This document shows positions 9,920-61,480 of a stretch of 64,000 bases of DNA, piece after piece; the first letter of the stretch is position 1; each line of letters opens with the position of its first letter. The notes under the pieces were generated by a model. That model was not told the origin of the DNA, ran no database searches, and saw only the letters and a list, made by a program, of their open reading frames with translations. Location of the stretch: the NCBI GenBank assembly GCA_020631995.1, contig JACKGJ010000002.1:154773-218772 (forward strand). The letters are read 5' to 3'. Source of the stretch: Candidatus Nomurabacteria bacterium. Its GTDB lineage: Bacteria; Patescibacteriota; Minisyncoccia; Phycocordibacterales; UBA918. The translations under genes and the position numbers were made by a program.

Positions 9920-9982
9920 ATCAGTTTCTTTGAATAATAAAACTTATAAACCTACCCCACACATCTAATTCTCATAACACAC

Positions 9983-10008
9983 AAAAACCGACACATAGTG
10001 TCGTTTTT
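9983..10008 (-). terminator. terminator/attenuator-like hairpin about 65 nt upstream of the rpoB start
   Basis: The minus strand reads AAAAA-CGACAC-TAT-GTGTCG-GTTTTT. Its symmetric A/T runs would let it work in either direction. Confidence 0.5.
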
Positions 10009-10069
10009 GAAAATATTTGCGGTTACTTAATTGTTATAAACATTACCCCCAGATGTTTATTAGACTTCT

Positions 10070-10306
10070 CCCAAACTAGCGTATCTGTACTAGTTTCAGA
10101 ATTCCGGCTCGTCACCTTAGATTGTCTAAGGCACCACACAGAGTACTTCAGAAAATATAGTCGTGCGCGCACTCCTTATTTTCTTGGTCGCTCTGTCGCC
10201 AAAACTCTTCCAACCAGCACATCTACATCTAGTTTTGGAAAAGTCTATCGCTCTAAGATTTAGGTGGCTTTAAACCGCAACACAATCACCCCTAAATCGC
10301 AAGTGG
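10070..10306 (-). repeat. GCTAG-box intergenic element, long-hairpin type (copy E)
   Basis: The minus strand aligns with 59641..59775 (+) in three blocks: CCACTTGC; GATGTAGATGTGCTGGTTGGAAGAGTTTTGGCGACAGAGC; and CCTTAGACAATCTAAGGTGACGAGCCGGAATTCTGAAACTAGTACAGATACGCTAGT. A 57-nt nested hairpin is inserted after GACAGAGC. Confidence 0.7.
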
Positions 10307-10371
10307 ATAAAACATAACAGAAAATCACGCTTATTGCAAGCCCTCTCTGGGGAAAACTTGCTTGACTAAGG

Positions 10372-11054: not shown

Positions 11055-11093
11055 ACACAAGCGGGCGGAATCGAAGATTCCGCCCGCTTGTGT
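11055..11093. repeat. perfect 18-bp G+C-rich hairpin abutting the trmD start
   Basis: ACACAAGCGGGCGGAATC-GAA-GATTCCGCCCGCTTGTGT. The GGCGGAA..TTCCGCC core recurs in a hairpin at 28292..28312. Confidence 0.7.
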
Positions 11094-11129
11094 TTTATAT
11101 ATACTTATCAAATTAATTTGAATTATAAA

Positions 11130-11228
11130 ATTGGATGAAGTGCAAGGCGCAAACGAATTTACGACTAAGACGTAGGTTCTACTACGGCGCAGGAGGAAAT
11201 TCTAGTTTGTAACGTAGCAATTCGCCAA
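11130..11228 (+). repeat. GCTAG-box family, long-hairpin type, divergent copy (G)
   Basis: GGATGAAGTGCAAGGCGCAAACGAATTT... resembles copy F (GGATGCAAGGCGCGCAAAGCAATT). It also shares the AAATTCT and GTAACGTAGC region with copies D and E. Confidence 0.45.
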
Positions 11229-11230
11229 TT

Positions 11231-11584
11231 TTAGATTTTCAAATCGTCGATGGCTTGGTCAAGAGATTTAGGTTCTGTCGCTTGTACCTCATCCGCACCA
11301 GAACTCATTGAAGTAGCCATTTCCTGACTAACTCGCCCTCCTTCTGGTTCGTTGATTTTTAGGTTTACACGAGCATCGTGCTTCATACCTACAACACGTA
11401 GTAGTGTTCGGATTGCTTTAGCAGTATTGCCAGAGCGTCCGATTATTTTACCCATATCTTCAGCGTGCACGTCGAGCGTCAAGAGTACCCCCATCTCATC
11501 TACTGTACGGTTAGTCTTTACTGATTCCGGATGGTCTACCAGAGATTTCACTAGAGTCTCTAAAAATTGCTGATCTTCTTGCAT
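11231..11584 (-). CDS. khpA: KH-domain RNA-binding protein (KhpA/YlqC-like) with C-terminal extension
   Basis: 117 aa. KH core is GKIIGRSGNTAKAIRTLL. It occupies the classical position between rpsP and trmD. Confidence 0.8.
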   Translation of the reverse strand: MQEDQQFLETLVKSLVDHPESVKTNRTVDEMGVLLTLDVHAEDMGKIIGRSGNTAKAIRTLLRVVGMKHDARVNLKINEPEGGRVSQEMATSMSSGADEVQATEPKSLDQAIDDLKI

Positions 11585-17454: not shown

Positions 17455-17564
17455 TATCGATGTTTGCGCTAGCAAACTTTTAGTAGAAGAGTTGCCGGTG
17501 GGCAACTCCTTAGATAGCAAGAACACCTGGTCCATTTACGCCCGCAGGCGAAATGGTGTTCTTA
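17455..17564 (-). repeat. GCTAG-box intergenic element, core type (copy C)
   Basis: The minus strand reads TAAGAACACCATTT-CGCCTGCGGGCG-TAAATGGACCAGGTGTTCTTGCTATCTAAGGA-GTTGCC-CACC-GGCAAC-...AAAAGTTTGCTAGCGCAAAC. It aligns with copies A and B. It begins on the rnc stop codon. Confidence 0.7.
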
Positions 17565-18254
17565 CCACCCCTTGGTATCAATGGCTTTTTCAGCGGCATC
17601 TTGCTCTGCTTCTTGCTTAGAGCGACCCTGACCTTCTGCTACTTTTTCATCTCGTAGAAATACACCAATAGTGAACATACGATCATGATCAGGGCCTTCT
17701 TGGGAAAGCATTTCATAAGAAGGAGTAATTGAGACCTTTTCTTGAGCTAACTCCTGGAAGCGACTCTTAGCATCTTGCCAAAGTTTCTTTTCTACAATCT
17801 TGTCAGTTTTGTTGAATAGCTGTTCACCAATGAACTTCTTAGCGGCGTCGTAGCCTTGGTCTAGATAAATGGCGCCAATACAAGACTCAAATGCATTCGC
17901 CAATATGTATTGTCTGGCTCTTCCAGTGTCCTTAGCTTCCCCTTTGGACATCAACATAAAATCATTTAGACCCAGCTTTTGAGCAGATTCTGCAAGTGAC
18001 ACAGTATTTACTAAGGCTGCGCGCACAGCTGTTAGTTCCCCCTCTGGCTTCTCTGGATACTTTTTATAAAGATAGTCTGTGACAACAAGTTCTAGTACTG
18101 CGTCGCCAAGAAATTCAAGGCGTTCATTGTGTTCTTGGGTAGCTTCTTTGTGTTCATTTAGGTACGAACGGTGGGTGATGGCAGACAAAAGATAGTTTTT
18201 GTCTATAAATACCACTCCGAGAATGGTTTCTAATTTTGATAGTTCTATTTCCAT
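17562..18254 (-). CDS. rnc: ribonuclease III
   Basis: 230 aa. RNase III signature NERLEFLGDAVL, plus a C-terminal dsRBD. Confidence 0.95.
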   Translation of the reverse strand: MEIELSKLETILGVVFIDKNYLLSAITHRSYLNEHKEATQEHNERLEFLGDAVLELVVTDYLYKKYPEKPEGELTAVRAALVNTVSLAESAQKLGLNDFMLMSKGEAKDTGRARQYILANAFESCIGAIYLDQGYDAAKKFIGEQLFNKTDKIVEKKLWQDAKSRFQELAQEKVSITPSYEMLSQEGPDHDRMFTIGVFLRDEKVAEGQGRSKQEAEQDAAEKAIDTKGW

Positions 18255-18274
18255 ATTCAGTTATGAATTAGAAA

Positions 18275-18327
18275 TTTCGAATTTTGAATCAATTTTAAAA
18301 TTCGAGTTTCGAATTTGATTCAAAATT
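18275..18327. repeat. A+T-rich imperfect palindrome upstream of rnc
   Basis: TTTCGAATTTTGAATCAATTTTAAAATTCGA-GTT-TCGAATTTGATTCAAAATT. The AATTTTGAATCAA and TTGATTCAAAATT arms enclose an inner AAATTCGA/TCGAATTT palindrome. Confidence 0.6.
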
Positions 18328-18387
18328 AAAAATTTAATTTAATAATTTCGTTAGCTTTTATGCTGAATATTCGTTTTGAAAAAAATG

Positions 18388-18478
18388 TGACGGATGCAAG
18401 GCGCGCAAAGCAATTGGTACCGAGCCATATATGACATAAGGTGAGAGCCCAATTGTCTGCAGCGCAACACAGCAGACG
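18388..18478 (+). repeat. GCTAG-box family, long-hairpin type, divergent copy (F)
   Basis: GGATGCAAGGCGCGCAAAGCAATTGGTACCGAGCC...TAAGGTGAGAGCCCAATTGTCTGCAGCGC parallels copy D (GGATGCAGATG...AATTTTGGCGACAGAGCC...TAAGGTGACAAGCTAAAATTCTGAAAC). It ends at the nusB-nudix stop codon. Confidence 0.5.
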
Positions 18479-19375
18479 TTATAGTTTTTTCGAAACGAGC
18501 ATAGTTACGGCTTTGGTGACTATCGGCAATATATCCTCATAAAAGTTTAAGTCAAGTATTTCCGCCACCTTGAACCATTTAGCATCATCTAATCCCCCCT
18601 TCTTCTCCATTGAAAGCTCTACATATGGAGCCTCGGCCAGGAAGTAGGTTACTTGCTTGCGGTGCTTCCCAATATCAGGCTTATTAGCCACATACTCGTT
18701 GTTACCGAGCTCTTTTTCAATTTTGATATCAAGCCCGACTTCCTCACGGAGTGCACGGGTTGCGCCTTCTTCGGGGGTCTCGGTCTCTGCTACCTTGCTT
18801 TTAGAAAGTGTCCAGTGGCCGAATATATCGTGCACAAGTGCTAAGTACATTTCGCCATTATGAACAGCGTATACCACTGCTCCAGCTAGCCTGATTACTG
18901 GCATCTGGTCAAAGGGTAAATCTTTCTTTTTTTTAGTTATCTCGTCCTTCCCAGGTTCACCGATTTCCTTATAAACAGCACCCAAAACACCGTTTACAAA
19001 CCGTCCAGAGTTTTCTCCGCCGAATTGTTTAGCTAGTTCAATAGCCTCATTAATAGCTACCTTTGCCGGCACCTCTTTACGGTCTGAAAAAAGTAGTTCG
19101 TAAAGTCCTAGTCGTAGTATGTTTCTGTCTATTGGAGAGATACGGTCAAGTGGCCATTCAGGCGCAGCTTTTTCAATAACAAGATCTAACTCCTTTTGTT
19201 TTTGGAGTACACCATCTAATACCCTTTCCATAAAAGGTAGGTCGCTCTTATTGCGGGCGAACTCATCAACATTGCGTTTTAGTATCTCTACTAACTCATC
19301 TTTTACAATGTTATTTTGGTCCCACTCAAAAAGAGTTTGTAGAATAATTGATCTTGAAAGGTGCCTGTTTGCCAT
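18479..19375 (-). CDS. nusB: NusB antitermination factor fused to a C-terminal Nudix hydrolase domain
   Basis: Residues 1-140 are NusB-like (RILRLGLYELLF, AINEAIELAKQFG, FVNGVLG). Residues from about 160 to 298 carry a Nudix-box-like segment, SKVAETETPEEGATRALREEVGL. Confidence 0.8.
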   Translation of the reverse strand: MANRHLSRSIILQTLFEWDQNNIVKDELVEILKRNVDEFARNKSDLPFMERVLDGVLQKQKELDLVIEKAAPEWPLDRISPIDRNILRLGLYELLFSDRKEVPAKVAINEAIELAKQFGGENSGRFVNGVLGAVYKEIGEPGKDEITKKKKDLPFDQMPVIRLAGAVVYAVHNGEMYLALVHDIFGHWTLSKSKVAETETPEEGATRALREEVGLDIKIEKELGNNEYVANKPDIGKHRKQVTYFLAEAPYVELSMEKKGGLDDAKWFKVAEILDLNFYEDILPIVTKAVTMLVSKKL

Positions 19376-24000: not shown

Positions 24001-24268
24001 GGTTGTTACCGCCGGAATGGTAGCGAATGTGAGAGAACTCCTAACTAAGAAGGGTGACAGGATGGCTTTTATAATATTGGCTAACCATACTGACCAGATA
24101 GAAGTAACAGCCTTTCCTGAGACTTATCGTGCTCTCTCTGAAGTGCTGAAACCTTCAAGTTGCATTGCTGTTAAAGGCCGGTTACAGATTAGGAGTGGTG
24201 AGCCGACAATAATGCTCGAGAATGCTAAATTACTAGCACCAGTACAGAATACTTTAGTTGAAGGTTGA
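21047..24268 (+). CDS. dnaE: DNA polymerase III alpha subunit (DnaE)
   Basis: 1073 aa. N-terminal PHP domain (HLHVHTHYSLL), polymerase core (PDIDMDF, FNKAHAASYG) and an OB-fold C-terminus. Ends in TGA. Confidence 0.95.
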   Translation: MSAKPLTSEFIHLHVHTHYSLLNALPTPKELAGAAKADGQEALAITDNGVLYGAIDFIKACQKEGIKPIIGLDAFLSPRTRFDKDAGIDKPRSRLVLLAENNVGYQNLIELVTRSFIDGFYYKPRLDQELLEKHHEGLVAVIPSFAGEVAQALKNGDEERAGERLDWYKQLFPHCYLEITNHPEILDHNENQERIKTLAQSTSVPLLAAHDVYYLKPEDRVARETMMKIQNGGVVDLSGDLGDVDDFSFLSQAEIKKRFVDVPEAVSNTVKVAERCNVEIPIGTTWYFPDYLIESGKEPDDELRELAYKGIPWRGLSLDDKEVTTRLDYELDVIKMKGYAKYFLVVGDLLREARERGILTTIRGSVAGSLTTYVLGITNVDPLEYKLPFERFLNPERPSAPDIDMDFADNRRDEIIEYTKQKYGEDKVAQIGTFGTMMARAAVRDVARALGHAYSVGDRIAKLIPMGSQGFPMTIKKALEIEPDLAKLYKSESEVKEVIDLAKMIEGRVRHLGVHAAGVVIAPEPLNRFVPVQPDPKTGKMITQYEMRSVGEDGVGLLKFDFLGIKNLAILADAVKRVQKIRGIEVDIENIPLDDKKTFEMLARGETMGLFQLNGSGMTAFLKQLRPTTIHDINAMVALYRPGPMESIPQYIERKHNSALVSFMDPRLETILDRSYGVITYQDDVMMTAITLAGYSWLEADMLRKAMGKKIPEVMEAEKEKLLKGFVEYGKLSAQKAEQLWKLIEPFAAYGFNKAHAASYGRVAYQTAYMKANYPVEYMSAVLTADSGDTDKIYEIIHECERMNLEVLPPDINESFADFSVVPNTQKIRFGLTTIKNFGEGIADAIIEERKQNGPFASLSDFLTRVHSRGLNRKSLEALIQTGAFDRFEDRALLCGNIDRLLSFNKESAAAAESSQESLFGSVTGHSENLTLDESPEITTTQKLAWEKDLLGVYVSGHPLDVYTEELNKRSSITDLKTDGRNGIPVVTAGMVANVRELLTKKGDRMAFIILANHTDQIEVTAFPETYRALSEVLKPSSCIAVKGRLQIRSGEPTIMLENAKLLAPVQNTLVEG

Positions 24269-24275
24269 TTGGGGG

Positions 24276-24303
24276 TTGACGTAATAATGCCAAGAGTTAT
24301 TAT
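24276..24303 (+). promoter_or_regulatory. sigma-70-type promoter of the thrS leader
   Basis: TTGACG (24276..24281), 16 nt, TATTAT (24298..24303). Confidence 0.6.
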
Positions 24304-24309
24304 CTAGGT

Positions 24310-24477
24310 ACAGAGATTGCTCCGGCTACCAATCGGAGGCATTGTGCGCCACAGGCCTAATCTGTCTAATTAAGCGCCCTAACACAAGTATTACTTGTAT
24401 GGGAAGCTCGGTGGAACCGCGGTTAAGACCGCCCGAGCAAAAATTCAATGATTGAATTTTTGCTCGGGCGTTTTTTG
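24310..24477 (+). promoter_or_regulatory. T-box riboswitch leader (threonine-specific, compact stem I) with terminator
   Basis: T-box-like sequence GCTCGGTGGAACCGCGG. Antiterminator GCTCGG-UGGAA-..GCGG-UUAAGA-CCGC-CCGAGC, whose 3' arm is shared with the terminator GCCCGAGCAAAAATTCAATGATTGAATTTTTGCTCGGGC+TTTTTT (24431..24477). The candidate specifier is ACC followed by A, in GGCTACCAATCGG. Confidence 0.7.
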
Positions 24478-24480
24478 TAA

Positions 24481-24694
24481 GAACCCATCTCGAATAGAAT
24501 GGCTAGAAATAACGTTCAAAATTCGAGCGAAAAACAAGGTGGACTTCGAAGTGAACTAATGTTCATTGAGAAGGAACCGAAGTTTTGTAGCCGAATTTTG
24601 GATGTTAGCTTCAGCCAAGCTAGTCGTTTTTAGATGGGTGTATTACATCCATCTAAAAACGACTCCAGTTGGCGGTTCTATTTGAGATGGGTTC
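24481..24694 (+). repeat. 214-bp element bounded by 19-nt terminal inverted repeats, inserted between the T-box terminator and thrS
   Basis: Left end GAACCCATCTCGAATAGAA pairs with right end TTCTATTTGAGATGGGTTC. The only difference is a G:U pair on the plus strand. Internally there is a perfect 16-bp hairpin (AGTCGTTTTTAGATGG...CCATCTAAAAACGACT) and two GCTAG boxes. Confidence 0.7.
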
Positions 24695-24714
24695 TATTAA
24701 TTAATTTATAAATT

Positions 24715-25941
24715 ATGGAAGAAAGAGATCATAAGAAGATAGGACCAGAGCTAGGTCTTTTCTATATTGACCCAGTGGTTGGGAAAGGTTTGCCTATGTT
24801 TCTCCCGAAGGGGGCAATCATAAAGCGTGAGCTTGAGAACTTCGTTGTGGAAGAAGAAACTCGACGTGGTTACCAGCACGTAGATACTCCCGACTTGGCT
24901 AACTTAGCTCTATACAAAAAGTCTGGGCACTATCCTCACTATAAAGACTCAATGTATGCTCCAATTAACATTGACGATGATGAGTATATGCTCCGTCCGA
25001 TGACCTGTCCGCATCACTTCCAGATGTTCCTTCACAAACCACGAAGTTATAAGGAGCTACCGATGAGAATAGCAGAATTGGCACAGCTATATCGATATGA
25101 ACAGTCAGGAGAGATTATGGGCTTGCAGCGTGTTCGCTCATTCTGTTTAGCTGATGCACATATCATTTGCGCGTCAGAAGAGCAGGCTGCTGAGGAAGCT
25201 GGAAAAGCATTAGAGCTGATTGAGTATATGTCCTCAGTCCTTGGCCTTAAGTTTGGTGAGGATTACCGCTATCGCCTATCGCTCGGTGACCGAGATAATA
25301 CTGAAAAGTATTATGACAATCCTGAAGCCTGGGAGAAGGGAGAAGAACTACTACGTGAGGTAATGAAGAAGCGTGGTAACGAATTTGAGGAAGCAAAAGA
25401 CGAAGCAGCCTTTTATGGACCCAAAATAGATGTGCAAATGAAGAACGTTAATGGCAAAGAAGATACTGCCTTTACCGTACAGTACGACTTCTGTATGCCA
25501 GATAAGTTTGACCTCAAGTACATAGGTCAAGACGGCAAGGAGCACAGAGCTTTTGTGGTGCACCGCTCCTCAGTCGGGGCTATAGAACGTGTAATGGCCT
25601 TCTTGATAGAAAAGTATGCTGGTGCCTTCCCTCTCTGGCTTTCTCCAGAGCAAATAGCTGTCATTCCAGTTTCTGAAAAACACTTTGACTATGCTAGAGA
25701 AGTGCATGAAAAACTAAAGTTGTCTGGAATACGCTCAGTGTTAGATGATGATAATGACTCACTTGGTAAAAAGATTCGTGGTGCTAAACAAGACAAGCTC
25801 CCATACTTTATAGTGGTTGGTGATAAGGAGGTGGAGTCAGGTCAATTGCCACTCGAGAACCGTAGTGGTGAAAAAGTTGAAATGACTATAGACGACATCG
25901 CTCTGAAATTATGTGGTGAGATTAAGTCCCGCTCTTTGTAG
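24715..25941 (+). CDS. thrS: threonyl-tRNA synthetase, catalytic core plus anticodon-binding domain only (no TGS or editing domains)
   Basis: 408 aa. It starts at MEERDHKKIGPELGLFY, equivalent to about residue 241 of E. coli ThrRS. Class II motifs are present (MRPMTCPHH, FRYEQSGE, RAFVVHRS). Confidence 0.9.
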   Translation: MEERDHKKIGPELGLFYIDPVVGKGLPMFLPKGAIIKRELENFVVEEETRRGYQHVDTPDLANLALYKKSGHYPHYKDSMYAPINIDDDEYMLRPMTCPHHFQMFLHKPRSYKELPMRIAELAQLYRYEQSGEIMGLQRVRSFCLADAHIICASEEQAAEEAGKALELIEYMSSVLGLKFGEDYRYRLSLGDRDNTEKYYDNPEAWEKGEELLREVMKKRGNEFEEAKDEAAFYGPKIDVQMKNVNGKEDTAFTVQYDFCMPDKFDLKYIGQDGKEHRAFVVHRSSVGAIERVMAFLIEKYAGAFPLWLSPEQIAVIPVSEKHFDYAREVHEKLKLSGIRSVLDDDNDSLGKKIRGAKQDKLPYFIVVGDKEVESGQLPLENRSGEKVEMTIDDIALKLCGEIKSRSL

Positions 25942-26109: not shown

Positions 26110-28233
26110 TTATTTCCAGCTCTGATCCGCGTACTTCGCTACCAGCGCTTCGACTTTTTTTCTGTTTTCCGTGTCAGTCTCTGACATACCTGTTCCTGCT
26201 CCATAAAGAGAGAAACCTAGTACGCTACCCTTCTTCACTACAAGGATGTAGGCGATGAAGAGTGCCCAGAGTGTAAGTACAGCGTAGAACAGGAAGGTAA
26301 GGAATGCTCCAGCCTCAAAACCAGTATATGGCACTTGAGTAAGGGCGATTACTAGAGCTTGGTCGCGCTTTTCGTAGACAGCGATATCATCAACATCGAC
26401 GTCTACCTTACAAGTACGACTTCCTCCATCTTCACCTTCAGCCTTCATTCTAAATTCAGTAGACTGATTGATGATAATATCGATTTCACCGTCGAGGTAC
26501 TTCTTACGCTTAGACGAACTGTAGTCATCAGTATCGAAGATGGTATTGCCACGATCGTCCTTGATTACAATTTCATCAACGTTTTTGGTTTCCCAAGAAA
26601 GGGTTACCTTCTCGCCACGCTTTACACGGTCTCTAGAGATATCAAGTTCACACTTTGGAGACTTCTTATTGTCATCTTCATCCTCAATTTCCACTCGTAC
26701 AGTACAGGTATCAGAACCGTTTGTACCAGTAGCAGTAAGGGTGAAGGTCGTGTCGTCGTTAATTTCTACCTTCTTAGATCCATCAGCAGATACGTTACCA
26801 ATACCCTGGTTGATGCTAACAGAAGTAGCGTTGGTGGTGTCCCATGTAAGGGTTACATCATCACCTTCTTCAACCTCGTCGTCAGAAACACGAAGGTATT
26901 CACAACGAGCAGCTTGAGTATCTGATTCTTTAGTTATTGTAACAGTACAAGAGTCACTACCTGATGTGCCGGTCGCAGTTAAAATAAAAGTAGTATTTGA
27001 GTTAACACGTACGGTCTTTGAACCGTCCATAGAAACTGAACCTACGCCATTATTGATCGATACTGAAGTGGTATTGGTAGTTTCCCAATTTAGAGTCACG
27101 TCAGCTCCTCCGGCTGGTACGGTGGTGCGACTAGCTCTCAAGAAGTCACACTTAGGAGCTTCATCTTCTGGCTCATCTTCAACAGTAACTTTTACAGTAC
27201 ACTTGTCAGTTCCACCATTACTATTCCATACGTCTAACCAAAATGTCTTTGAACCGTCTACGAAGACTGTCTTAGAACCGTTGAGGCTAATGTTTGGAGT
27301 AGTACCATAGTGATTAGACTCATTTGAGCCCCATAGAGTTACTCCGCTAGCGTTAGAAGTACTCCAAGAGAAGGTAACGTTACCTCCACCTGCGGGTACT
27401 TTAGTAGTACTAGCGTTTAGGTAGTTACAAACTGGTGCTGGTACATCGATTGGTGTGTCGACAGTAATAGACACGCTACACTTAGCTGACTGTCCAGCAC
27501 TGTTCCAAACATCCAACCAGACATTTTTAGAACCATTTACGAAGACTGTCTTAGAACCACTGAGACTGATATTAGGAGTAGTACCGTAGTGATTAGACTC
27601 TCCATTTCCCCAGAGTGTAGCACCACTGGCATTAGTTGTGCTCCAAGAGAAGGTAACGTTACCTCCACCTGCGGGTACTTTAGTAGTACTAGCGTTTAGG
27701 TAGTTACAAACTGGTGCTGGTACTTGAACTGGCTGTTCAACACTAACTGATGCAGTACACTTAGCAGTTTGACCTGCATTATTCCATACGTCTAACCAAA
27801 ATGTCTTAGATTCATCTACAAAGACGGTCTTAGAACCACTGAGACTGATATTAGGAGTAGTACCATAATGGTTAGATTCTCCAGCACCCCATAGGGTCAC
27901 TCCACTAGCGTTAGAAGTACTCCAAGAGAAGGTAACATTGCCCCCACCTGCAGGTACTTTAGAAGTACTGACATTAAGGTAACTACAAACTGGTGCTGGT
28001 GTAATAGGATCCAGCGGGCCGTCTCCACCACCAATATCACCGCTAGGAGAATCACCACCGCAACAACCACCACCAAAGTCAGCGTCCCAGGCTTCAGCTG
28101 AAGAAGCTGAAGTACTCAAAGAATCAGCTGACCCGCTTATCTGTGGCAACTGAGGTAATACTACAAACATCATCAATGACAAAGTAGCGATTGATGCAAC
28201 GCCGTAGATAGTAAATTTAATCGTATTGGTCAT
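26110..28233 (-). CDS. membrane-anchored surface protein with six Cys-bounded Ig-like repeats
   Basis: 707 aa. N-terminal signal/TM segment. Three 93-aa near-identical repeats (CNYLNASTTKVPAGGGNVTFSWST...) are followed by three diverged 82-90-aa repeats. The C-terminus has VPYTG, then a 29-aa hydrophobic segment, KK, and a 40-aa tail. Confidence 0.8.
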   Translation of the reverse strand: MTNTIKFTIYGVASIATLSLMMFVVLPQLPQISGSADSLSTSASSAEAWDADFGGGCCGGDSPSGDIGGGDGPLDPITPAPVCSYLNVSTSKVPAGGGNVTFSWSTSNASGVTLWGAGESNHYGTTPNISLSGSKTVFVDESKTFWLDVWNNAGQTAKCTASVSVEQPVQVPAPVCNYLNASTTKVPAGGGNVTFSWSTTNASGATLWGNGESNHYGTTPNISLSGSKTVFVNGSKNVWLDVWNSAGQSAKCSVSITVDTPIDVPAPVCNYLNASTTKVPAGGGNVTFSWSTSNASGVTLWGSNESNHYGTTPNISLNGSKTVFVDGSKTFWLDVWNSNGGTDKCTVKVTVEDEPEDEAPKCDFLRASRTTVPAGGADVTLNWETTNTTSVSINNGVGSVSMDGSKTVRVNSNTTFILTATGTSGSDSCTVTITKESDTQAARCEYLRVSDDEVEEGDDVTLTWDTTNATSVSINQGIGNVSADGSKKVEINDDTTFTLTATGTNGSDTCTVRVEIEDEDDNKKSPKCELDISRDRVKRGEKVTLSWETKNVDEIVIKDDRGNTIFDTDDYSSSKRKKYLDGEIDIIINQSTEFRMKAEGEDGGSRTCKVDVDVDDIAVYEKRDQALVIALTQVPYTGFEAGAFLTFLFYAVLTLWALFIAYILVVKKGSVLGFSLYGAGTGMSETDTENRKKVEALVAKYADQSWK
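27151..27987 (-). repeat. 3 x 279-bp in-frame tandem repeat inside the surface-protein gene
   Basis: CTCCAAGAGAAGGTAAC... recurs at 27362, 27641 and 27920, a period of 279 bp. Long stretches are identical between copies. Confidence 0.9.
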
Positions 28234-29106: not shown

Positions 29107-29277
29107 CCAGATTTACTAGCAATGTCGCGTTCATCCCAGAGGCTCTGCCTCTGGGATGAACGCGACCATTTAAAACAGTATCGCCGGAGGGCGATTCCCT
29201 AGCTAGCAAAAACGCCTGGTTCCGACCGCGTAATGCCTCGGGATTCTATCCCGAGGATAGCGGGGCGGACGTTTTTA
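29107..29277 (-). repeat. GCTAG-box intergenic element, core type with 19-bp terminal hairpin (copy B)
   Basis: The minus strand reads TAAAAACGTCCGCCCCGCTAT-CCTCGGGA-TAGAA-TCCCGAGG-CATTACGCGGTCGGAACCAGGCGTTTTTGCTAGCTAGGGA-ATCGCC-CTCC-GGCGAT-ACTGTTTTAAATG-GTCGCGTTCATCCCAGAGG-CAGAG-CCTCTGGGATGAACGCGAC-ATTGCTAGTAAATCTGG. It begins on the sortase stop codon. Confidence 0.75.
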
Positions 29278-46050: not shown

Positions 46051-49000
46051 TTATGGAGTAGTTGGAATCGGGTCCTCAGCTGGTGTGGTTGGTTCAGGTT
46101 TCTTAGTTGATGCTTCGGGAGTGGTCACTGTGTCCTTACTAGATTCATCAATTTGGGTATCGTTAGTACTATCTGCCTCAGTTGATTCAGATTCATTAGA
46201 GATAGTCTGACTCTCGTCATCAGTTGTTGCTTCGCTATCATTCTCAGTGTCTGGGGACTCACTAGTGTTCTTTGTTGTGTTATCAGCTTTGTTCGTTTCG
46301 TCTACTATCTCGTCTACAGGCGTACTTATATCATCAGTTTCATCAGCACTTTCTGTGCCCGTGACATCTTCAGTATTTTGAGGTCCTATGTCGTTCTTAG
46401 TGTCTGACGTAGTCTCAGGCACAGGCTCCGATTCTGGATAAACTGCAGGCTCGGTATTTGTTTCGTCAAGAATCTTGAGTACCTGTTCTTCTGAAAGGCA
46501 GGTGTTACCAACACACAGTAATTCAGTATGAATGACAGTGGCAGTCAACTTCTGCACCACAATCTCCACAATTCTAAGCACTCCATCTACAAAGGCCTGA
46601 GCTAGCTCTATCACTCGCTCAAAGAGTGAGTGAGCTGAGAACGGTTCAGTAGAAGAAGCAGTTGATGAAGCGTTCTGGTAGTAGTACGCCATCATAGAGT
46701 CACCAAGGTCTAGGTTAACAAATACTTCAACCGTACCTGGTTCTTCTGCACTAAATGGTGCTAGAGCGTAACCAATGACAGCGTCACCTATCTCTGCTTT
46801 ACGAGCTACTCCAGGAGTACTAGTACCCATAGTGATTAAGTCACCGATAGCTATTACGCCGCCATCAATAGTTACCTTCACTGGTACACGTCCTGCTAGT
46901 GCTATTGGTACCTTTAGTGCTCCTTCATTAGCATTGTCGTCTAGGACGATACCAGGTTTAGTCGCTACGATACCTACTACTCGCTCTCCCGCCATACCGG
47001 TAGCTTTCTTAACGTAGCCAGGACGTTCTGTGTCTAGTGCTACTACGTCACCGGCTTCGAGGTCACTTTCTGCTGTGGCGTACATTTCTGCCAGGTCGGC
47101 TCCACCGGTGTTTTCTGCGACGTATGAGATGTATGCATGGGCGGTGCCGGAGAAGGAGCTTCCTAAATTAGAGTACTCATTTATATCCTGCCCAGTAAAG
47201 CCAACCACAAACATTTTGGTACCGTCAGCATTAAAGGCTAAGTCTTGTGGTTGAGTGTCCTGACTTACTACACTAAAGGAATCGACGAAGGAGGCAGTCG
47301 AAACATCAAAGCCAGTACTAAGATTGTATTTATTGACGTCTTGTCCGCCATAACCTACTAATAACATTTTGGTGCCGTCAGGTGAAAAGGCGAGGCCTTG
47401 TGGTGTAGTATCCTGCGCTGCCACACTAAAGGAATCGACGAAAGAGGCTGTAGATAAGTCAAATCCGGTACCAAGGGTGTATTCGTTGACGTCGTTGCCA
47501 GTTTGACCCAGTATGAACATTTTAGTTCCGTCTGAGTTGAAGGCGATACTCCATGGCTGAGTATCCTGACCTGATACACTAAAGTTACTGGCATAGACAG
47601 CAGTAGAAACATCAAAGCCAGTGCCAAGATTATATATATTGATATCTTGTCCACTGGAGCCAACCACAAACATTTTGGTACCGTCTGTATTGAAGGCGAG
47701 ATCGGTCGGATAAATATCTTGCGCTGTCACACTAAAGGAATCAACATATGAGGCGGTCGAAACATCAAAGCCGGTGCTGAGGGTGTATTCGCTGATGTAA
47801 TCATTGACATTACCCACTACAAACATTTTGGTACCAGTGGGGTTAAAGGTGACGCCTATTGGTTGGGTCTGTTGCCCGGACACACTGAAAGAATCAACGA
47901 AAGAGGCATTTTGGATATCATAACTAGTATCTTCTGCTACTACAGTAATCGAACTATCGGCACTCACTACACGGTAATTTTTGTTACCTGCCACGGTAGT
48001 CATTACGGTTTCACCATCAATAGTTAGGATGAGTTGTCCACCAGTCATAGCAGTCGCATCCAGCACTACTTGCACGGTTGATGTGGCGTCAAATGATGTA
48101 ACTGCATTCCAAGTACTGGTAGCTGTGAAGGTGTGTGAAAGAACACCATCGTCAGCCGAACCTCCAGCAGAGATACCAAGTGATGAGGTAGCTACCCACT
48201 GCAAGCCTGAGCCGGTTGACTGAAGTACCATACCAGCCGAGCCAGCTGAACCAATACTATCGAGCAGTGAACCAGTTAGTGAAAGGCTACCAGAGACAGA
48301 AAGGTTGCCTGCGATCGTAGAAGTAGCGGTCGTAGATGAGGTGGTGAAGTTGTCGAAACTAGCGGTACCTTCTACGGTGAGCTTCGAGGACGGTGTAGTG
48401 GTACCGATACCGATATTGCCCGAGTTGTAGTAGATGTCTGAGCCAGTAGATGTCCATTGTGAAGAGACCTTACTAGCCCATTCTGTAGTACTTGCTATCA
48501 GCGGGATACTGTATCCAGCAGTTAGTGAAGTAGCTCCGGTAGATGAATTGTATGTGAGGCCGGTAGCTGAGTTAGAGAATAGGTTGCGGATGTATGAAGG
48601 AGTGAGGGCGGTGGTTGAGGCAGCGGCTGCGTCCCAAGAAGCACTGTTTGCTGTGACGGTGTTGTATGTGTTGTTCCAGTTGGTTGTGCTGGCTGTGAGT
48701 GGGATGTTGTATCCAGACGTTAAACTAAATACACCAGTTGAAGTAGCGTACGAAAGACCAGTAGCAGACGATGAAAGAGTGTCGCGGGCACGTGCATCAG
48801 TGAAGTATAGATTACCGTTTTCTGTAATGTCTCCAGTGTCTAGTACTACTACGCCGATTTGACCGTTTACAGAATCTACTGCACCCCCTCCGGAAATTCC
48901 CAACGAAGAAGTGGCAATGTTACTCCAAGCAGAACCGGTCCAAACTAACAAATTACCAACAGCCTCAGTCATTGAAGCAACATCTGACAAATCCTCTAGA

Positions 49001-49524
49001 GAAGAGACATTGCTAGTACCACCTCCGCCGCCACTATTACTGGTATCGATATTTTCGATGGAGCGCATTATGGCGTCGACTTGTGCGTCATACTCTTGTC
49101 TAGTGACAAAACGAGAAACATCCACAACCCCATCCTTCACTATCACCTCTTTAATAACCTCACGTTCAAGAGGATAGGTGTTCGAGTAGTACTCATTAAC
49201 GATTGTGGTTGGAGTACTGTTAGTAACCACCTCCATTTGCTTAGTAGTTGTGGAGGAAACTACTTCGGTTTCAGGTTCTTTGCTGGCCGGAGTTATAGCG
49301 TATTCAATCGATTTAGTAATACAGCCATATCCAAACAAGCCTTTAACATCACACCAAAACTCTGACCAAGCGGAAGAGGATACTTGTGCAGCAAGGCTTT
49401 TGTTTAAATTGTTGTAACCATACTTAACAACAGGGGTACTAAAATACACAGCAGAGAAGATAAAAATAACAATCCCTACTAACAAAACACCCAGTATTTT
49501 AAAGCGAAATCCGCCCTGGTTCAT
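46051..49524 (-). CDS. giant membrane-anchored surface protein (1157 aa)
   Basis: N-terminal TM segment. Fibre-like Ser/Thr/Gly-rich region with paired ATGL(S/T)Y...SLT(S/A)GY(N/S)IPL motifs. Five 51-aa propeller-like repeats. A conserved beta-rich domain (GGADLAEMY...GDVVAL...VPIALAGRVPVKV). An acidic Ser/Thr/Asp/Glu-rich tail. Confidence 0.8.
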   Translation of the reverse strand: MNQGGFRFKILGVLLVGIVIFIFSAVYFSTPVVKYGYNNLNKSLAAQVSSSAWSEFWCDVKGLFGYGCITKSIEYAITPASKEPETEVVSSTTTKQMEVVTNSTPTTIVNEYYSNTYPLEREVIKEVIVKDGVVDVSRFVTRQEYDAQVDAIMRSIENIDTSNSGGGGGTSNVSSLEDLSDVASMTEAVGNLLVWTGSAWSNIATSSLGISGGGAVDSVNGQIGVVVLDTGDITENGNLYFTDARARDTLSSSATGLSYATSTGVFSLTSGYNIPLTASTTNWNNTYNTVTANSASWDAAAASTTALTPSYIRNLFSNSATGLTYNSSTGATSLTAGYSIPLIASTTEWASKVSSQWTSTGSDIYYNSGNIGIGTTTPSSKLTVEGTASFDNFTTSSTTATSTIAGNLSVSGSLSLTGSLLDSIGSAGSAGMVLQSTGSGLQWVATSSLGISAGGSADDGVLSHTFTATSTWNAVTSFDATSTVQVVLDATAMTGGQLILTIDGETVMTTVAGNKNYRVVSADSSITVVAEDTSYDIQNASFVDSFSVSGQQTQPIGVTFNPTGTKMFVVGNVNDYISEYTLSTGFDVSTASYVDSFSVTAQDIYPTDLAFNTDGTKMFVVGSSGQDINIYNLGTGFDVSTAVYASNFSVSGQDTQPWSIAFNSDGTKMFILGQTGNDVNEYTLGTGFDLSTASFVDSFSVAAQDTTPQGLAFSPDGTKMLLVGYGGQDVNKYNLSTGFDVSTASFVDSFSVVSQDTQPQDLAFNADGTKMFVVGFTGQDINEYSNLGSSFSGTAHAYISYVAENTGGADLAEMYATAESDLEAGDVVALDTERPGYVKKATGMAGERVVGIVATKPGIVLDDNANEGALKVPIALAGRVPVKVTIDGGVIAIGDLITMGTSTPGVARKAEIGDAVIGYALAPFSAEEPGTVEVFVNLDLGDSMMAYYYQNASSTASSTEPFSAHSLFERVIELAQAFVDGVLRIVEIVVQKLTATVIHTELLCVGNTCLSEEQVLKILDETNTEPAVYPESEPVPETTSDTKNDIGPQNTEDVTGTESADETDDISTPVDEIVDETNKADNTTKNTSESPDTENDSEATTDDESQTISNESESTEADSTNDTQIDESSKDTVTTPEASTKKPEPTTPAEDPIPTTP
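47146..47910 (-). repeat. 5 x 153-bp coding tandem repeat (51-aa units)
   Basis: Repeat unit is ASFVDSFSV.GQDTQP..(L/I)AFN.DGTKMFVVG..GQD(I/V)NEY.L.TGFDVST. Confidence 0.85.
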
Positions 49525-54344: not shown

Positions 54345-54537
54345 CCCGAGCAAATCAGGTGTTGATAGTAAAAACGTCGCTCGTCCTATCTCCGCCGCAA
54401 GCGGACGGAGCATTAGGCGAGCGAACCAGGTGATTTTGCTAGATAGGGTGTCGGCCTCCGCCGACCTTGGTTATAAAAGTCACATTCATCCTTGCGACAA
54501 TGCCGTCGAGACTGACTTCGACATTGCTAGTGAAACT
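54345..54537 (+). repeat. GCTAG-box intergenic element, core type (copy A), antisense to flanking genes
   Basis: CCCGAGCAAATCAGG...GTAAAAACGTCGCTCGTCCTAT-CTCCGCCGC-AA-GCGGACGGAG-CATTAGGCGAGCGAACCAGGTGATTTTGCTAGATAGGGT-GTCGGC-CTCC-GCCGAC-CTTGGTTATAAAAGTCACATTCATCC...GACATTGCTAGTGAAAC. It aligns end to end with copy B. Confidence 0.75.
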
Positions 54538-54544
54538 TTAATCT

Positions 54545-59640: not shown

Positions 59641-59775
59641 CCACTTGCTAGATTTTGTTTAAATGGATGCAGATGTACTTAGTTGGAGGAATTTTGGCGA
59701 CAGAGCCTTAGGTAAGCTAAGGTGACAAGCTAAAATTCTGAAACTAAGTACAAATGCGACATTTTAGCGAAATCT
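59641..59775 (+). repeat. GCTAG-box intergenic element, long-hairpin type (copy D), antisense to flanking genes
   Basis: CCACTTGCTAGATTTTGTTTAAATG-[GCAGATGTACTTAGTT GGAGGAATTTTGGC GACAGAG CCTTAG-GTAAG-CTAAGG TGACAA GCTAAAATTCT GA AACTAAGTACAAATGC]-GACATTTTAGCGAAATCT. The flanks match copy B and the interior matches copy E. Confidence 0.75.
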
Positions 59776-61480
59776 ATGTCCACTTTGCTTCTATGCCGTT
59801 AAGCGGCATCACAAATGTAAATGTCGAGCCCTTACCTTCACCCTCTGATGCAACGGTAATGTCTCCTCCCATTCCGTTTGCCATAGTGCGGGCAATATAT
59901 AGACCAAGGCCAGTACCAGTTACATTTATTTCATTAGCATTTTTAGCTCGTTCAAATTTTTGAAAAAGTGTCTTTAAGCCTTCAGGTGAGATTCCAATAC
60001 CTTGATCAATTACATCCACATAAGCCTTTTTCTTCTCTTTATCTTTACGAACTACCACGGTGATAGTGCCAGTGTCTTTAGTGTATTTAAGTGCATTGTC
60101 GATAAGGTTTTGTACTATTTGTCTGGACTTACCAATATCAAGTTTCACAGCCACGCCTTCCTCGGTCGCGGGCTTAAATTCAAGTTTTATGCCTTTTTTC
60201 TCCGCGACAGGTACTAATTCAACAACCACTTCATTAGCTAATTTCTTTAAATCATAGTCAGCAATTTCATACTTCATATTTCCGGCTTCAATGCGTGACA
60301 CGTTAAGATAGTCTTCAATTGAAAGAGCCATATGACGAGACGCATCAGATACGTGAGTCAAAACCTCCTTTACTTTCGGATTAACTTCACCGTATGAACC
60401 CTCGATAATCATCGAAATATATCCACGTACTGAAGTCAGAGGGCTTCTTAACTGATGAGAAGCAATGGACACAAACTCTGACTTCATCTTATCCAAGCGC
60501 TCCAAACGCACATTCACTCCAGCCAACTCAGTGGCCAACTGTTGCGCTAGTTGCTTCTGCTCCACTTCTCTTTTTACACTTCGAGCTAAAACAAATCCAA
60601 TACCAAGCGTTAGAAGAACAGTCGCTACTGCAATAATCTGAATATTTTCTACCTTCCTTATAAATAATATGGAAACGTTCAAAATAACTAATGTGGTAAT
60701 CAAGGCTTGTGTTGCCAAAATTTTCACATTCAATGCGTTGTAACGCACAATAAGGTAAGTAAGAAATCCTGCAAATACTGGCATACCAAATAGTCCGTAC
60801 TGACCAAGTTCCCAATCAACCTCAAAACTCCCTAAGATGTTTCCAAGTGAAAACAAGAACAAAAATGCAGTAATCCCAAAAGTTGCTAAACGAACAGAAG
60901 TTCTTTTGCTCGGTGCGACTTTATGAGCTTTGTAAAGTCCATAAATAAGTATCCACGCCAGAACAAGTATTTCAACGTTATAAAGATAATATTGCCAAAG
61001 TGGACCTTCAAGCGCTTCACGATAACAATTTGTATAATCATAGCCTGTTAGATTGACTGAAGTGTGTGCAAAAATTAGCAAGGGCACAAATAATGCGAAA
61101 ATAACCAACTCCGCCCTCACACTTGGATACCTATCCTCTACGAAAGCATAAATAAAATACAATGCACCGACGTATATTAGAAAATCAAAATATATTAGGA
61201 TTGACCAGAAAAACATAGTGAATTCTGGCTTTTCTGTTGCCCATAGTATTAGGTCAAAAAAACTCCAAATTGAAAAAACCACCGCCATAAAAAGCAGTGC
61301 ACGGTTTGCTCGTAATTTCCAGTTCTGTAAAAAGACAAACGCAGCTAGTATTAATATGGCAATAGCAGGGAAAAGGTGCGAGTAGTATATAAAATTGCCA
61401 AAGACATTCTCAGAAAATATAAGTAACGTGGCTTGGTCCCAGCCACAATATGTTGGATCAATGACAATGTTACTTTGCAT
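59774..61480 (-). CDS. sensor histidine kinase with multi-pass N-terminal membrane domain (no adjacent response regulator)
   Basis: Roughly 7-8 TM segments, H-box SHQLRSPLTSV, and a HATPase_c domain (DNALKYT, DQGIGI, GTGLGLY). Confidence 0.85.
   Translation of the reverse strand: MQSNIVIDPTYCGWDQATLLIFSENVFGNFIYYSHLFPAIAILILAAFVFLQNWKLRANRALLFMAVVFSIWSFFDLILWATEKPEFTMFFWSILIYFDFLIYVGALYFIYAFVEDRYPSVRAELVIFALFVPLLIFAHTSVNLTGYDYTNCYREALEGPLWQYYLYNVEILVLAWILIYGLYKAHKVAPSKRTSVRLATFGITAFLFLFSLGNILGSFEVDWELGQYGLFGMPVFAGFLTYLIVRYNALNVKILATQALITTLVILNVSILFIRKVENIQIIAVATVLLTLGIGFVLARSVKREVEQKQLAQQLATELAGVNVRLERLDKMKSEFVSIASHQLRSPLTSVRGYISMIIEGSYGEVNPKVKEVLTHVSDASRHMALSIEDYLNVSRIEAGNMKYEIADYDLKKLANEVVVELVPVAEKKGIKLEFKPATEEGVAVKLDIGKSRQIVQNLIDNALKYTKDTGTITVVVRKDKEKKKAYVDVIDQGIGISPEGLKTLFQKFERAKNANEINVTGTGLGLYIARTMANGMGGDITVASEGEGKGSTFTFVMPLNGIEAKWT

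Follow-up and report, generated by a model that had tools for sequence, protein, structure and literature searches.

Among the palindromic repeats described in bacteria, the Rickettsia palindromic elements (RPE) are palindromic repeats of 100–150 bp, found in a reduced genome, that may overlap genes and add codons to them, and ERIC elements are known in size variants with internal insertions. REPINs are composed of two highly conserved inverted REP ends, which are invariant 16-mers, around a less conserved spacer, and show compensatory changes in their long hairpin (PMC3116915), while one study of Correia elements describes transcripts that can be bound or cut by RNase III and can alter the expression of neighbouring genes (PMC2649163). 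The genomes of Patescibacteria are very small and streamlined, dispersed repeats are not a known feature of them, and in the literature on repeats and structured RNAs of the candidate phyla radiation (CPR)/Patescibacteria we found no description of the family presented here. Its first member, rod D, is an imperfect hairpin between a histidine kinase gene and trpS in a 64,000-nucleotide stretch of contig JACKGJ010000002.1 of a Candidatus Nomurabacteria bacterium, the whole of which we refer to as the window. We give about an even chance to the reading that D is a copy of an apparently undescribed family of 125–130-nt rod-shaped hairpin repeats of Kaiserbacteria-like Patescibacteria that is structurally constrained and has been gained and lost; structured hairpin repeats would then persist even in genomes as streamlined as these.

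Fold of rod D and its conservation

D lies in the 171-nt spacer that separates the histidine kinase stop codon (59774) from the trpS start (59602), both genes being encoded on the − strand. The rod itself is formed by the + strand and consists of the following elements, with helices as predicted by RNAfold:

59649–59776, + strand: rod element D (128 nt), a stack of six helices with about 49 base pairs
59649–59659/59766–59776, + strand: helix P0
59661–59665/59760–59764, + strand: helix P1
59668–59671/59755–59758, + strand: helix P2
59674–59684/59742–59752, + strand: helix P3
59688–59698/59729–59739, + strand: helix P4
59705–59711/59717–59723, + strand: helix P5
59712–59716, + strand: apical loop, 5 nt
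59641–59648, + strand: CCACTTGC, adjoining D on its 5′ side, read from the sequence

The internal loops of D are small and purine-rich (GA/A, GA/AA, GGA/GA and GACAGA/GACAA). The initial annotation of this DNA had described a rod of three helices at 59641–59775; the three helices that it quoted are exactly those of the RNAfold prediction, and the rod is real but slightly larger than claimed, with two extra basal helices that extend it to 59649–59776. Over 59641–59775, the + strand folds at −57.7 kcal/mol versus −34.6 kcal/mol for the opposite strand (z = −7.9, with none of 200 shuffles folding as well), and the full unit folds at −58.8 kcal/mol versus −35.2 kcal/mol (all RNAfold).

The ends of the rod meet the neighbouring gene directly. 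The 3′-terminal CTA of D is the TAG stop codon of the − strand histidine kinase gene, whose product ends in EAKWT* with D and in EAKWTGD* in the D-less relative L098. On the 5′ side, CCACTTGC shows similarity to the first bases of the rpoB leader beside a second copy, E, as well as to the motif TTGCTAGAT found in the X elements described below; it accompanies D wherever D occurs, partly diverged in L097, and is missing at empty sites. A promoter and terminator scan around D found no sigma-70-like promoter and no terminator.

The sequence of D recurs identically in an NCBI metagenome-assembled genome (MAG) and near-identically in two ENA assemblies, and a C>T single-nucleotide polymorphism at 59706 in other assemblies yields a U:G pair on the + strand of D. 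As a separate observation, three independent Logan assemblies (loci L002–L004, L092 and L093) break inside D at the same positions, 59697 and 59711, with contig ends that overlap by 15 nt only, and the longer hairpin E was assembled through; the breaks would fit either a second locus with an exact 45-nt core (59682–59726) or population heterogeneity.

Comparison of copies indicates that the fold is conserved. Across an alignment of seven D/E sequences, 98.2% of cells hold standard pairs and 8 pairs have changed on both sides; the observed pairing values were reached by 0 of 500 shuffles, and pairing falls to 28–50% when the partners are slid against each other. Compensated changes occur in 20 of the 30 pairs of a 12-sequence family alignment.

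Conservation is also strongly asymmetric between strands. The D/E alignment has G:U at 18 pair positions versus A:C at 2, and 13 copies together contain 71 G:U pairs versus 6 A:C 1×1 mismatches, counts that are non-independent owing to orthology. Tandem GA/GA 2×2 loops are present in the predicted fold of 11 of these 13 copies, and for every one of the 14 family sequences one and the same relative strand, hereafter the model strand, gives the better fold, by 4–27 kcal/mol. The strand-specific wobble pattern reported in the initial annotation is thereby upheld. D prefers the + strand and E the − strand, so the asymmetry tracks the element rather than the genomic strand. Moreover, about 57% of the bases of the model strand are purines and G exceeds C, whereas the + strand of the window overall has 48% purines and less G than C; since this composition runs contrary to the background, and the strand preferences of D and E are opposite, we rejected a strand-wise mutation bias as the source of the G:U asymmetry.

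Copies, insertions and orthologous sites

A covariance model, R1, built from the seven D/E sequences recovered all D/E orthologs at 95–135 bits, with D itself scoring 135 bits and E scoring 95 bits. R1 places four copies in the 64-kb window (at least four family members there), namely D and the following three, listed with the hairpin nested in E:

10061–10247, − strand: rod element E, 187 nt, comprising a 129-nt rod and a nested insert; in the rpoB leader, sense to the genes
10132–10189, − strand: nested secondary hairpin in E, 58 nt, at the P4/P5 junction
18371–18498, + strand: nusB–rnc copy, 128 nt, old and diverged; between nusB-Nudix and rnc, antisense to both
11118–11242, + strand: KH–trmD copy, 125 nt, diverged; between a KH-domain gene and trmD, antisense to both

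E folds at −86 kcal/mol versus −54 kcal/mol for the opposite strand. Its proposed homology to D is borne out by BLAST (85% identity over 41 nt and 81% over 54 nt) and by an identity of 76% (76.2%) over the whole rod once the insert is removed, and the helix pairing AGAGUUUUGGC/GCCGGAAUUCU had been quoted correctly. The 58-nt insert turns the apex into a three-way junction and folds as a branch in which ACAGAG pairs with CUCUGU. An insertion nested after GACAGAGC had been predicted from the sequence, and these 58 nt at 10132–10189 are exactly what is missing from the orthologous rod at L106:11501–11628; the hairpin is thus a later nested insertion in E. It resembles a hairpin in the KH–trmD spacer of L106. 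The second insertion ascribed to E, a 60-nt hairpin after CCACTTGC, proved to be something else, a conserved hairpin of the rpoB leader (10257–10298) that is kept in rod-less relatives.

The surroundings of E merit description in their own right. The rpoB leader (9982–10339, − strand) contains a promoter-like TTGCAA-17-TATGTT at 10311–10339, just upstream of the hairpin at 10257–10298, and a terminator-like attenuator at 9982–10008, downstream of it; the hairpin loop GUUGCGGUU could pair with the downstream AACCGCAA. These parts are conserved in relatives with and without the rod, which makes the region a candidate regulatory leader. In L106 (GCA_002422025.1), the site of the 11118 copy is occupied by a different rod (L106:9772–10000), whose apex GAGGAAAATAA...TATTTTCTGAAGCAC resembles the nested 58-nt hairpin of E, which suggests that there is another family of small hairpins and that the site is a hot spot for insertion. 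Within the same assembly, D and E are 82.9% identical, compared with 76.2% in the window and 81.4% for D orthologs, a pattern that could reflect gene conversion among the copies or their separate acquisition.

The two remaining copies in the window are more distant. The nusB–rnc copy, first noted as a divergent relative at 18388–18478, is a full-length member that matches R1 over the whole model length (35.5 bits, E ~3 × 10−7), and R1 also finds its ortholog in L102. Its 3′ arm encodes the last 6 NusB-Nudix codons and the stop codon. Orthologs are present in L102, L106 and L108, the four orthologs showing 13 pairs changed on both sides, and the consensus fold reaches −34.7 kcal/mol versus −21.2 kcal/mol on the other strand. 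The other proposed relative, at 11130–11228, does correspond to an element, which lies at 11118–11242, but its R1 score of 22.4 bits is no better than that of generic hairpins; we include it in the family because of its length and the end motifs, GATGAAGT(T)GC and GCAA(A)TTCGCYAATTTT, that it shares with L111:9332–9456 (67 bits). In this copy the 3′ arm consists of the 3′ end of the KH gene itself, a sequence that L102 has in the same form without the element, and the 5′ arm is complementary to that host sequence.

The family is found also in related Kaiserbacteria-like genomes. One metagenome scan with a core pattern yielded three further loci, with three copies within 3.6 kb in L111/L112 and one core-only copy after gyrA in L110. 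Copy sites in relatives thus comprise the position after gyrA, the spacers between a glycosyltransferase gene and ftsW and between ftsW and a VWA gene, and a 23S–tRNA spacer. Despite their sequence divergence, family members remain 125–130 nt long. Features conserved across subfamilies are the tandem GA/GA and GGA/GA internal loops and an apex of the form RAG-N-C, stem-loop, GG-Y-G, whereas the basal arms and ends differ between subfamilies, TAGAYTTT...AARTCTA being confined to the D/E copies; in the cross-subfamily alignment, MAFFT misaligned the middle helices between subfamilies. The combination of conserved apex and loops, variable ends, G:U far in excess of A:C and recurrent G:A loops is an unusually clear sign that selection sees a folded single strand rather than double-stranded DNA.

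D had additionally been said to have the same flanks as a "core copy B" carrying a 19-bp hairpin. No second copy of the two quoted D flanks occurs in the window, either at up to 3 mismatches or at 8 and 7 mismatches. What the window does hold is an approximate match around a 19-bp hairpin in the first of two branched elements:

29109–29275, − strand: X1, 167 nt, branched, related to the rod but distinct
54370–54538, + strand: X2, 169 nt, paralog of X1 (BLAST, 71% identity over 129 nt), between gap and scpA

The 3′ module of X1 (~29109–29178) consists of TGTTTTAAATGG, the 19-bp hairpin (29125–29165) and then GCGACATTGCTAGTAAATCT, and agrees with one D flank in 11 of 12 positions and with the other in 16 of 20; TTGCTAG lies 30 nt farther upstream. 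The flanks are therefore similar but not the same. With filters off, R1 gives a weak match to X1 at 29108–29178 (22.7 bits). The X1/X2 family has an architecture of its own, with a 5′ hairpin domain AAACGUC...AACCAGGYG followed by a three-way junction closed by UUUGCUAG/CUAGURAA, one arm of which is a hairpin with a CUCC loop and a covarying stem.

We fetched orthologous loci in relatives through close TrpRS and TrmD matches, which revealed filled and empty sites as follows:

Rod D, histidine kinase–trpS spacer: present in the window, L094–096 (TrpRS 94%), L090/091 and L097 (89%), spacer 169–171 nt; absent from L098, L099, L100 and L101, spacer 36–65 nt
Rod E, trmD–rpoB leader: present in the window and L106/L107; absent from the closer relatives L102–105, empty site CTTAGAGC^AATAAAC
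11118 copy, KH–trmD spacer: present in the window, spacer 190 nt; absent from L102 and L104, spacer 68 nt
X2, scpA–gap spacer: present in the window, spacer 219 nt; absent from all six relatives, spacer 48–65 nt

At the E site, L108 has a different small hairpin. X2 is a strain-specific insertion, with no target duplication or terminal inverted repeat visible when the window is compared with the six relatives. A neighbour-joining tree of TrpRS and AspRS groups the window with L094 and L097 with L099, placing the D-less L099 beside the D-bearing L097, which implies at least one loss of D or else more than one gain. The initial proposal of a modular family with nested hairpin insertion and REP- or MITE-like behaviour (MITE, miniature inverted-repeat transposable element) agrees with this presence and absence at orthologous sites and with the lack of the 58-nt hairpin from the ortholog of E.

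Placement is biased as well. Six of eight copies are antisense to both neighbours (D, the 18371 copy, the 11118 copy, L111:7136, L111:9332 and L110); among the others, E is sense and one copy sits between convergent genes. The copy at L111:9332 occupies a 23S–tRNA spacer and is antisense to an rRNA operon. Most copies abut stop codons, and antisense copies between tandem genes start at or within the end of the upstream gene. As to the suggestion that the wobble pattern argues for a transcribed RNA, the strand asymmetry itself holds, but with D and five further copies antisense to both flanking genes the RNA is plausible only; a transcribed RNA is not required, because one of the antisense copies opposes an rRNA operon and no promoter-like site was found near D.

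What the rods may be and how they may spread

According to our favoured explanation, the rod would neither code for a protein nor move autonomously, and would have been copied into several intergenic sites and gained or lost over evolutionary time. The conserved entity would be the fold of one defined strand (+ at D) rather than the end sequence, and the selected, probably also the copied, unit would be the folded single strand of model polarity. New copies would survive mainly directly after stop codons, often supplying or overlapping the stop codon, and mostly antisense to genes, where the mRNA would bear the weaker complement of the hairpin. An inserted rod would become part of the host transcript, probably as a long double-stranded RNA segment, and may serve as a candidate site for RNase III processing or transcript stability. 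We infer spread through an RNA or single-stranded-DNA intermediate, together with effects on host transcripts. An RNA is suggested by the GA/GA loops, the G:U pairs and the constant length; a self-contained RNA gene is disfavoured by the antisense position of copies, by missing promoters and by the covarying basal helices.

Several observations weigh against a repeat that spreads. The nusB–rnc copy is syntenic in all relatives examined, as expected of a host element. Empty sites are not clean excisions, their flanks having diverged; no target-site duplication is visible, and the ends are not conserved across subfamilies. Deletion of palindromes alone can explain the patchy distribution without transposition. 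The 3′ arm of the copy at 11118–11242, being host coding sequence, fits poorly with cut-and-paste of a fixed unit. Genes for a transposase, reverse transcriptase, HUH/RAYT protein or Nop-domain protein were not found among the window's open reading frames (ORFs) that were scanned or already annotated in overlapping loci, which covered all but a few of them and yielded housekeeping genes only. Finally, post-insertion changes in antisense copies favour G:U over A:C by only about 13 to 6, which is not significant, and the asymmetry in these copies may be largely inherited rather than actively maintained.

Some of these points would suit host cis-acting RNA hairpins, acting as RNase III sites or 3′ stabilisers, of which the nusB–rnc copy would be the original, autoregulatory one and the rest products of occasional duplication or recombination rather than of dedicated mobility. 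The oldest copy indeed lies directly upstream of rnc (17562–18254 in the window) in every relative examined, with 13 compensated pairs; RNase III substrates are usually long imperfect duplexes with internal loops, as the rods are; copies begin at stop codons or sit in leaders, and no mobility gene was found in the window. Nevertheless, six of the eight copies give the mRNA the weaker complement, with C:A and UC/UC mismatches, while the conserved G:U pairs and GA/GA loops lie on the other strand, and lineage-specific presence at unrelated loci needs a copying mechanism anyway, so that we regard this explanation as not very likely. The strand-specific conservation of non-Watson–Crick features and of length would follow from independent small RNA genes, that is, model-strand cis-antisense RNAs opposite gene 3′ or 5′ ends, bound by a protein via the apex and the GA loops. 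An A/T-rich, TAAAAT-like stretch lies 3–7 nt before a conserved GAUG in most copies, and the 3′ arm is U-rich. However, this −10-like stretch is inside the paired 5′ arm, and an RNA starting after it would lose the basal helices, which covary the most; E has CCAAAAC at the corresponding position, no sigma-70-like promoter or terminator was found around D, one copy is antisense inside an rRNA operon, and copies are dispensable in close relatives. Small RNA genes are accordingly an unlikely account of the family.

The same asymmetry could instead reflect a DNA strand. If a tyrosine HUH transposase moved the rods as hairpins of single-stranded DNA, in the manner of REP/REPIN–RAYT or IS200/IS605 systems, its substrate would be the folded DNA strand and not an RNA; of the mismatches in single-stranded DNA, G:T and tandem G:A belong to the more stable ones, and DNA hairpins tolerate them. 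Such an element would accommodate the strand-specific fold, the strong orientation bias (6 antisense, 1 sense, 1 between convergent genes) and the want of both a cross-subfamily terminal inverted repeat and a target duplication, and REPINs likewise have compensatory changes in their long hairpin (PMC3116915). Yet REPINs keep their ends invariant and vary their spacer, whereas the rods conserve the apex and vary the ends. In addition, GC skew and gene orientation put the folded strand on the leading-strand template, whereas IS200/IS605 elements use the lagging-strand template, and the window contains no Y1 or RAYT gene; we consider this explanation quite improbable. An artefact or a trivial origin, be it chance palindromes, misassembly or fragments of a known insertion sequence or intron, could draw on the breaks of the three independent Logan assemblies inside D (59697 and 59711), but has practically no chance of being right: the identical sequence in an NCBI MAG and the near-identical ones in two ENA assemblies, the fold z-score of −7.9 and the lack of any Rfam, phage or plasmid match all contradict it, and orthologs with compensatory changes in several other genomes effectively refute it.

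We see a slim chance that the rods are copies of an expressed structured RNA that spreads via a single-stranded, possibly RNA, intermediate, as a bacterial counterpart of short interspersed nuclear elements (SINEs) or of retro-copied small RNAs. The sense copy in the rpoB leader would then be the transcribed source copy. D starts with CCACTTGC like the predicted rpoB-leader transcript beside E, as would result from copying of that transcript without its leader hairpin, and the conserved apex and tandem G:A loops would form a putative binding site for some protein.

Genomic setting and comparison with known families

The TrpRS, histidine kinase and TrmD proteins of the window are identical to those in MAG GCA_020632025.1. 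In NCBI records the identical TrmD is assigned to Candidatus Nomurabacteria, and relatives at 96% identity are assigned to Candidatus Kaiserbacteria. A cyanobacterial origin, considered on the basis of GC content, was rejected because genes and nearest relatives alike are patescibacterial. A genome-collection scan with TrmD returned nearest species representatives that are ~52% identical, and rods are absent there. Nearly all genes of the window are on the − strand and have housekeeping roles (rpoB, rpoC, trmD, rnc, nusB, aminoacyl-tRNA synthetases, dnaE, gyrB), and a tRNA and tmRNA scan detected tRNA-Thr only.

Other features lie elsewhere in the window:

24226–24480, + strand: weak T-box-like leader (27 bits) containing GCTCGGTGGAACCGCGG, with a strong terminator at 24425–24475, upstream of a class II aminoacyl-tRNA synthetase gene (24715–25941)
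24478–24702, + strand: separate 225-nt branched rod between this terminator and the synthetase start codon, strongly strand-asymmetric (−114 versus −87 kcal/mol; 8 G:U pairs versus 1)
11055–11093: perfect 18-bp GC-rich hairpin abutting the trmD start codon on its upstream side and shared without change by relatives; the T-run needed for a terminator follows on the + strand and thus antisense to the genes
18479–19375, − strand: NusB fused to a Nudix/MutT-like domain (298 amino acids), a fusion present in all relatives examined
18272–18335: 64-nt AT-rich palindrome with a perfect centre in the upstream spacer of rnc, conserved in L102 and L106
47179–47907 in the ORF 46051–49524 and 27050–27886 in the ORF 26110–28233: tandem repeats of 153 nt and 279 nt, respectively

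The two large ORFs that bear these tandem repeats have no Pfam match and probably encode repeat-containing surface proteins.

Searches of Rfam at gathering and E-value thresholds, in the window and around D, gave no rod match: the sole gathering-level match in the window is tRNA-Thr, and at E ≤ 5–10 only a chance HAR1A match falls beside D. Phage, plasmid and viral-contig searches returned no true match, the three viral pattern matches having failed the covariance model. Known Rfam RNAs (signal recognition particle (SRP) RNA, 6S RNA, T-box, ribozymes, RAGATH and others) were rejected for want of a covariance-model match at or near the gathering score, and interpretations of the GA loops as a k-turn or box C/D motif, as well as hammerhead or other ribozyme cores, SRP and 6S RNA, group II intron domain V and retron msd were rejected on anatomy or for a missing partner gene.

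Guide RNAs and single-stranded mobile units resemble the rods in part. TIGR arrays and IS110 bridge RNAs, which guide Nop-domain or DEDD proteins, are likewise structured hairpin RNAs in parasitic or CPR bacteria, but by their definitions (PMC12045711) the rods do not qualify, being dispersed singletons with conserved loops of 2–6 nt, housekeeping neighbours and no Nop-domain gene nearby. Mini-elements derived from IS200/IS605 (PATE), which have unlike subterminal hairpins at their two ends and insert 3′ of a fixed tetra- or pentanucleotide, and TnpB omega-RNA were set aside, the rods being single end-to-end palindromes at insertion sites without a common motif (GAGC^, GTGTT^, CCAC^) in a window that has no TnpA or TnpB. 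An integron attC site, with conserved R and L boxes at the hairpin base, a variable apex and a place in cassette arrays beside an integrase gene, does not fit either, as the rod base varies and its apex is conserved, with rpoB, trmD, trpS, nusB and rnc as neighbours.

The rods are closer to MITEs in their dispersed copies (four in 64 kb, three in L111 and one in L110) and in their presence or absence at orthologous sites. A classical MITE is nevertheless rejected, as there are neither shared terminal repeats nor a target duplication. The ends of each rod pair with each other, but an end sequence in common is confined to D/E, and copies of other subfamilies end differently (TATAGTTGC..., CAAAACTTTC..., TCGTTTTG...); no insertion sequence was found. 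Filled and empty sites (E and the 11118 copy versus L102; X2 versus six relatives) show no direct repeat, and with their diverged flanks a 1–2-bp duplication is possible. The likeness to REPIN/RAYT systems of Pseudomonas and enterobacteria lies in an extragenic unit of about 100 nt that forms a long imperfect hairpin in single-stranded DNA or mRNA, with compensatory changes in the arms, many copies, long vertical inheritance and occasional gain or excision (PMC3116915). We rejected a REPIN because conservation is reversed with respect to that definition (PMC3116915), the apex and internal loops of the rod being invariant and its ends variable; moreover, the host is a Patescibacterium, the window has no RAYT (Y1 HUH) gene, and similarity in sequence is not expected.

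The Correia elements of Neisseria and the ERIC/IRU elements of enterobacteria are also imperfect palindromes of similar size (~105–155 bp; ERIC 127 bp) in transcribed intergenic regions beside gene ends. Their terminal inverted repeats are conserved and they duplicate a TA target, features not seen in the rods; D/E copies do start and end with TA, but the empty L102 site is not simply one TA. The strand-specific pattern of G:U pairs and GA/GA loops is, conversely, much stronger in the rods. RPE are commonly in frame inside genes, whereas rods lie at gene ends and in spacers, but the two are alike in contributing to coding sequence, the rods supplying the histidine kinase stop codon and the last 6 NusB-Nudix codons.

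Rods thus reshape gene ends, through stop codons and C-terminal codons, and they coincide with breaks in de Bruijn-graph assemblies and differ between close strains, so they matter for annotation, assembly and strain typing in these uncultured bacteria. The family offers a tractable case for learning how REP-like elements spread and affect neighbouring transcripts. On our best reading, it behaves like MITE, REPIN, Correia, ERIC and RPE elements and differs from them in the visible selection on the fold and the non-Watson–Crick motifs of one strand and in its free ends.

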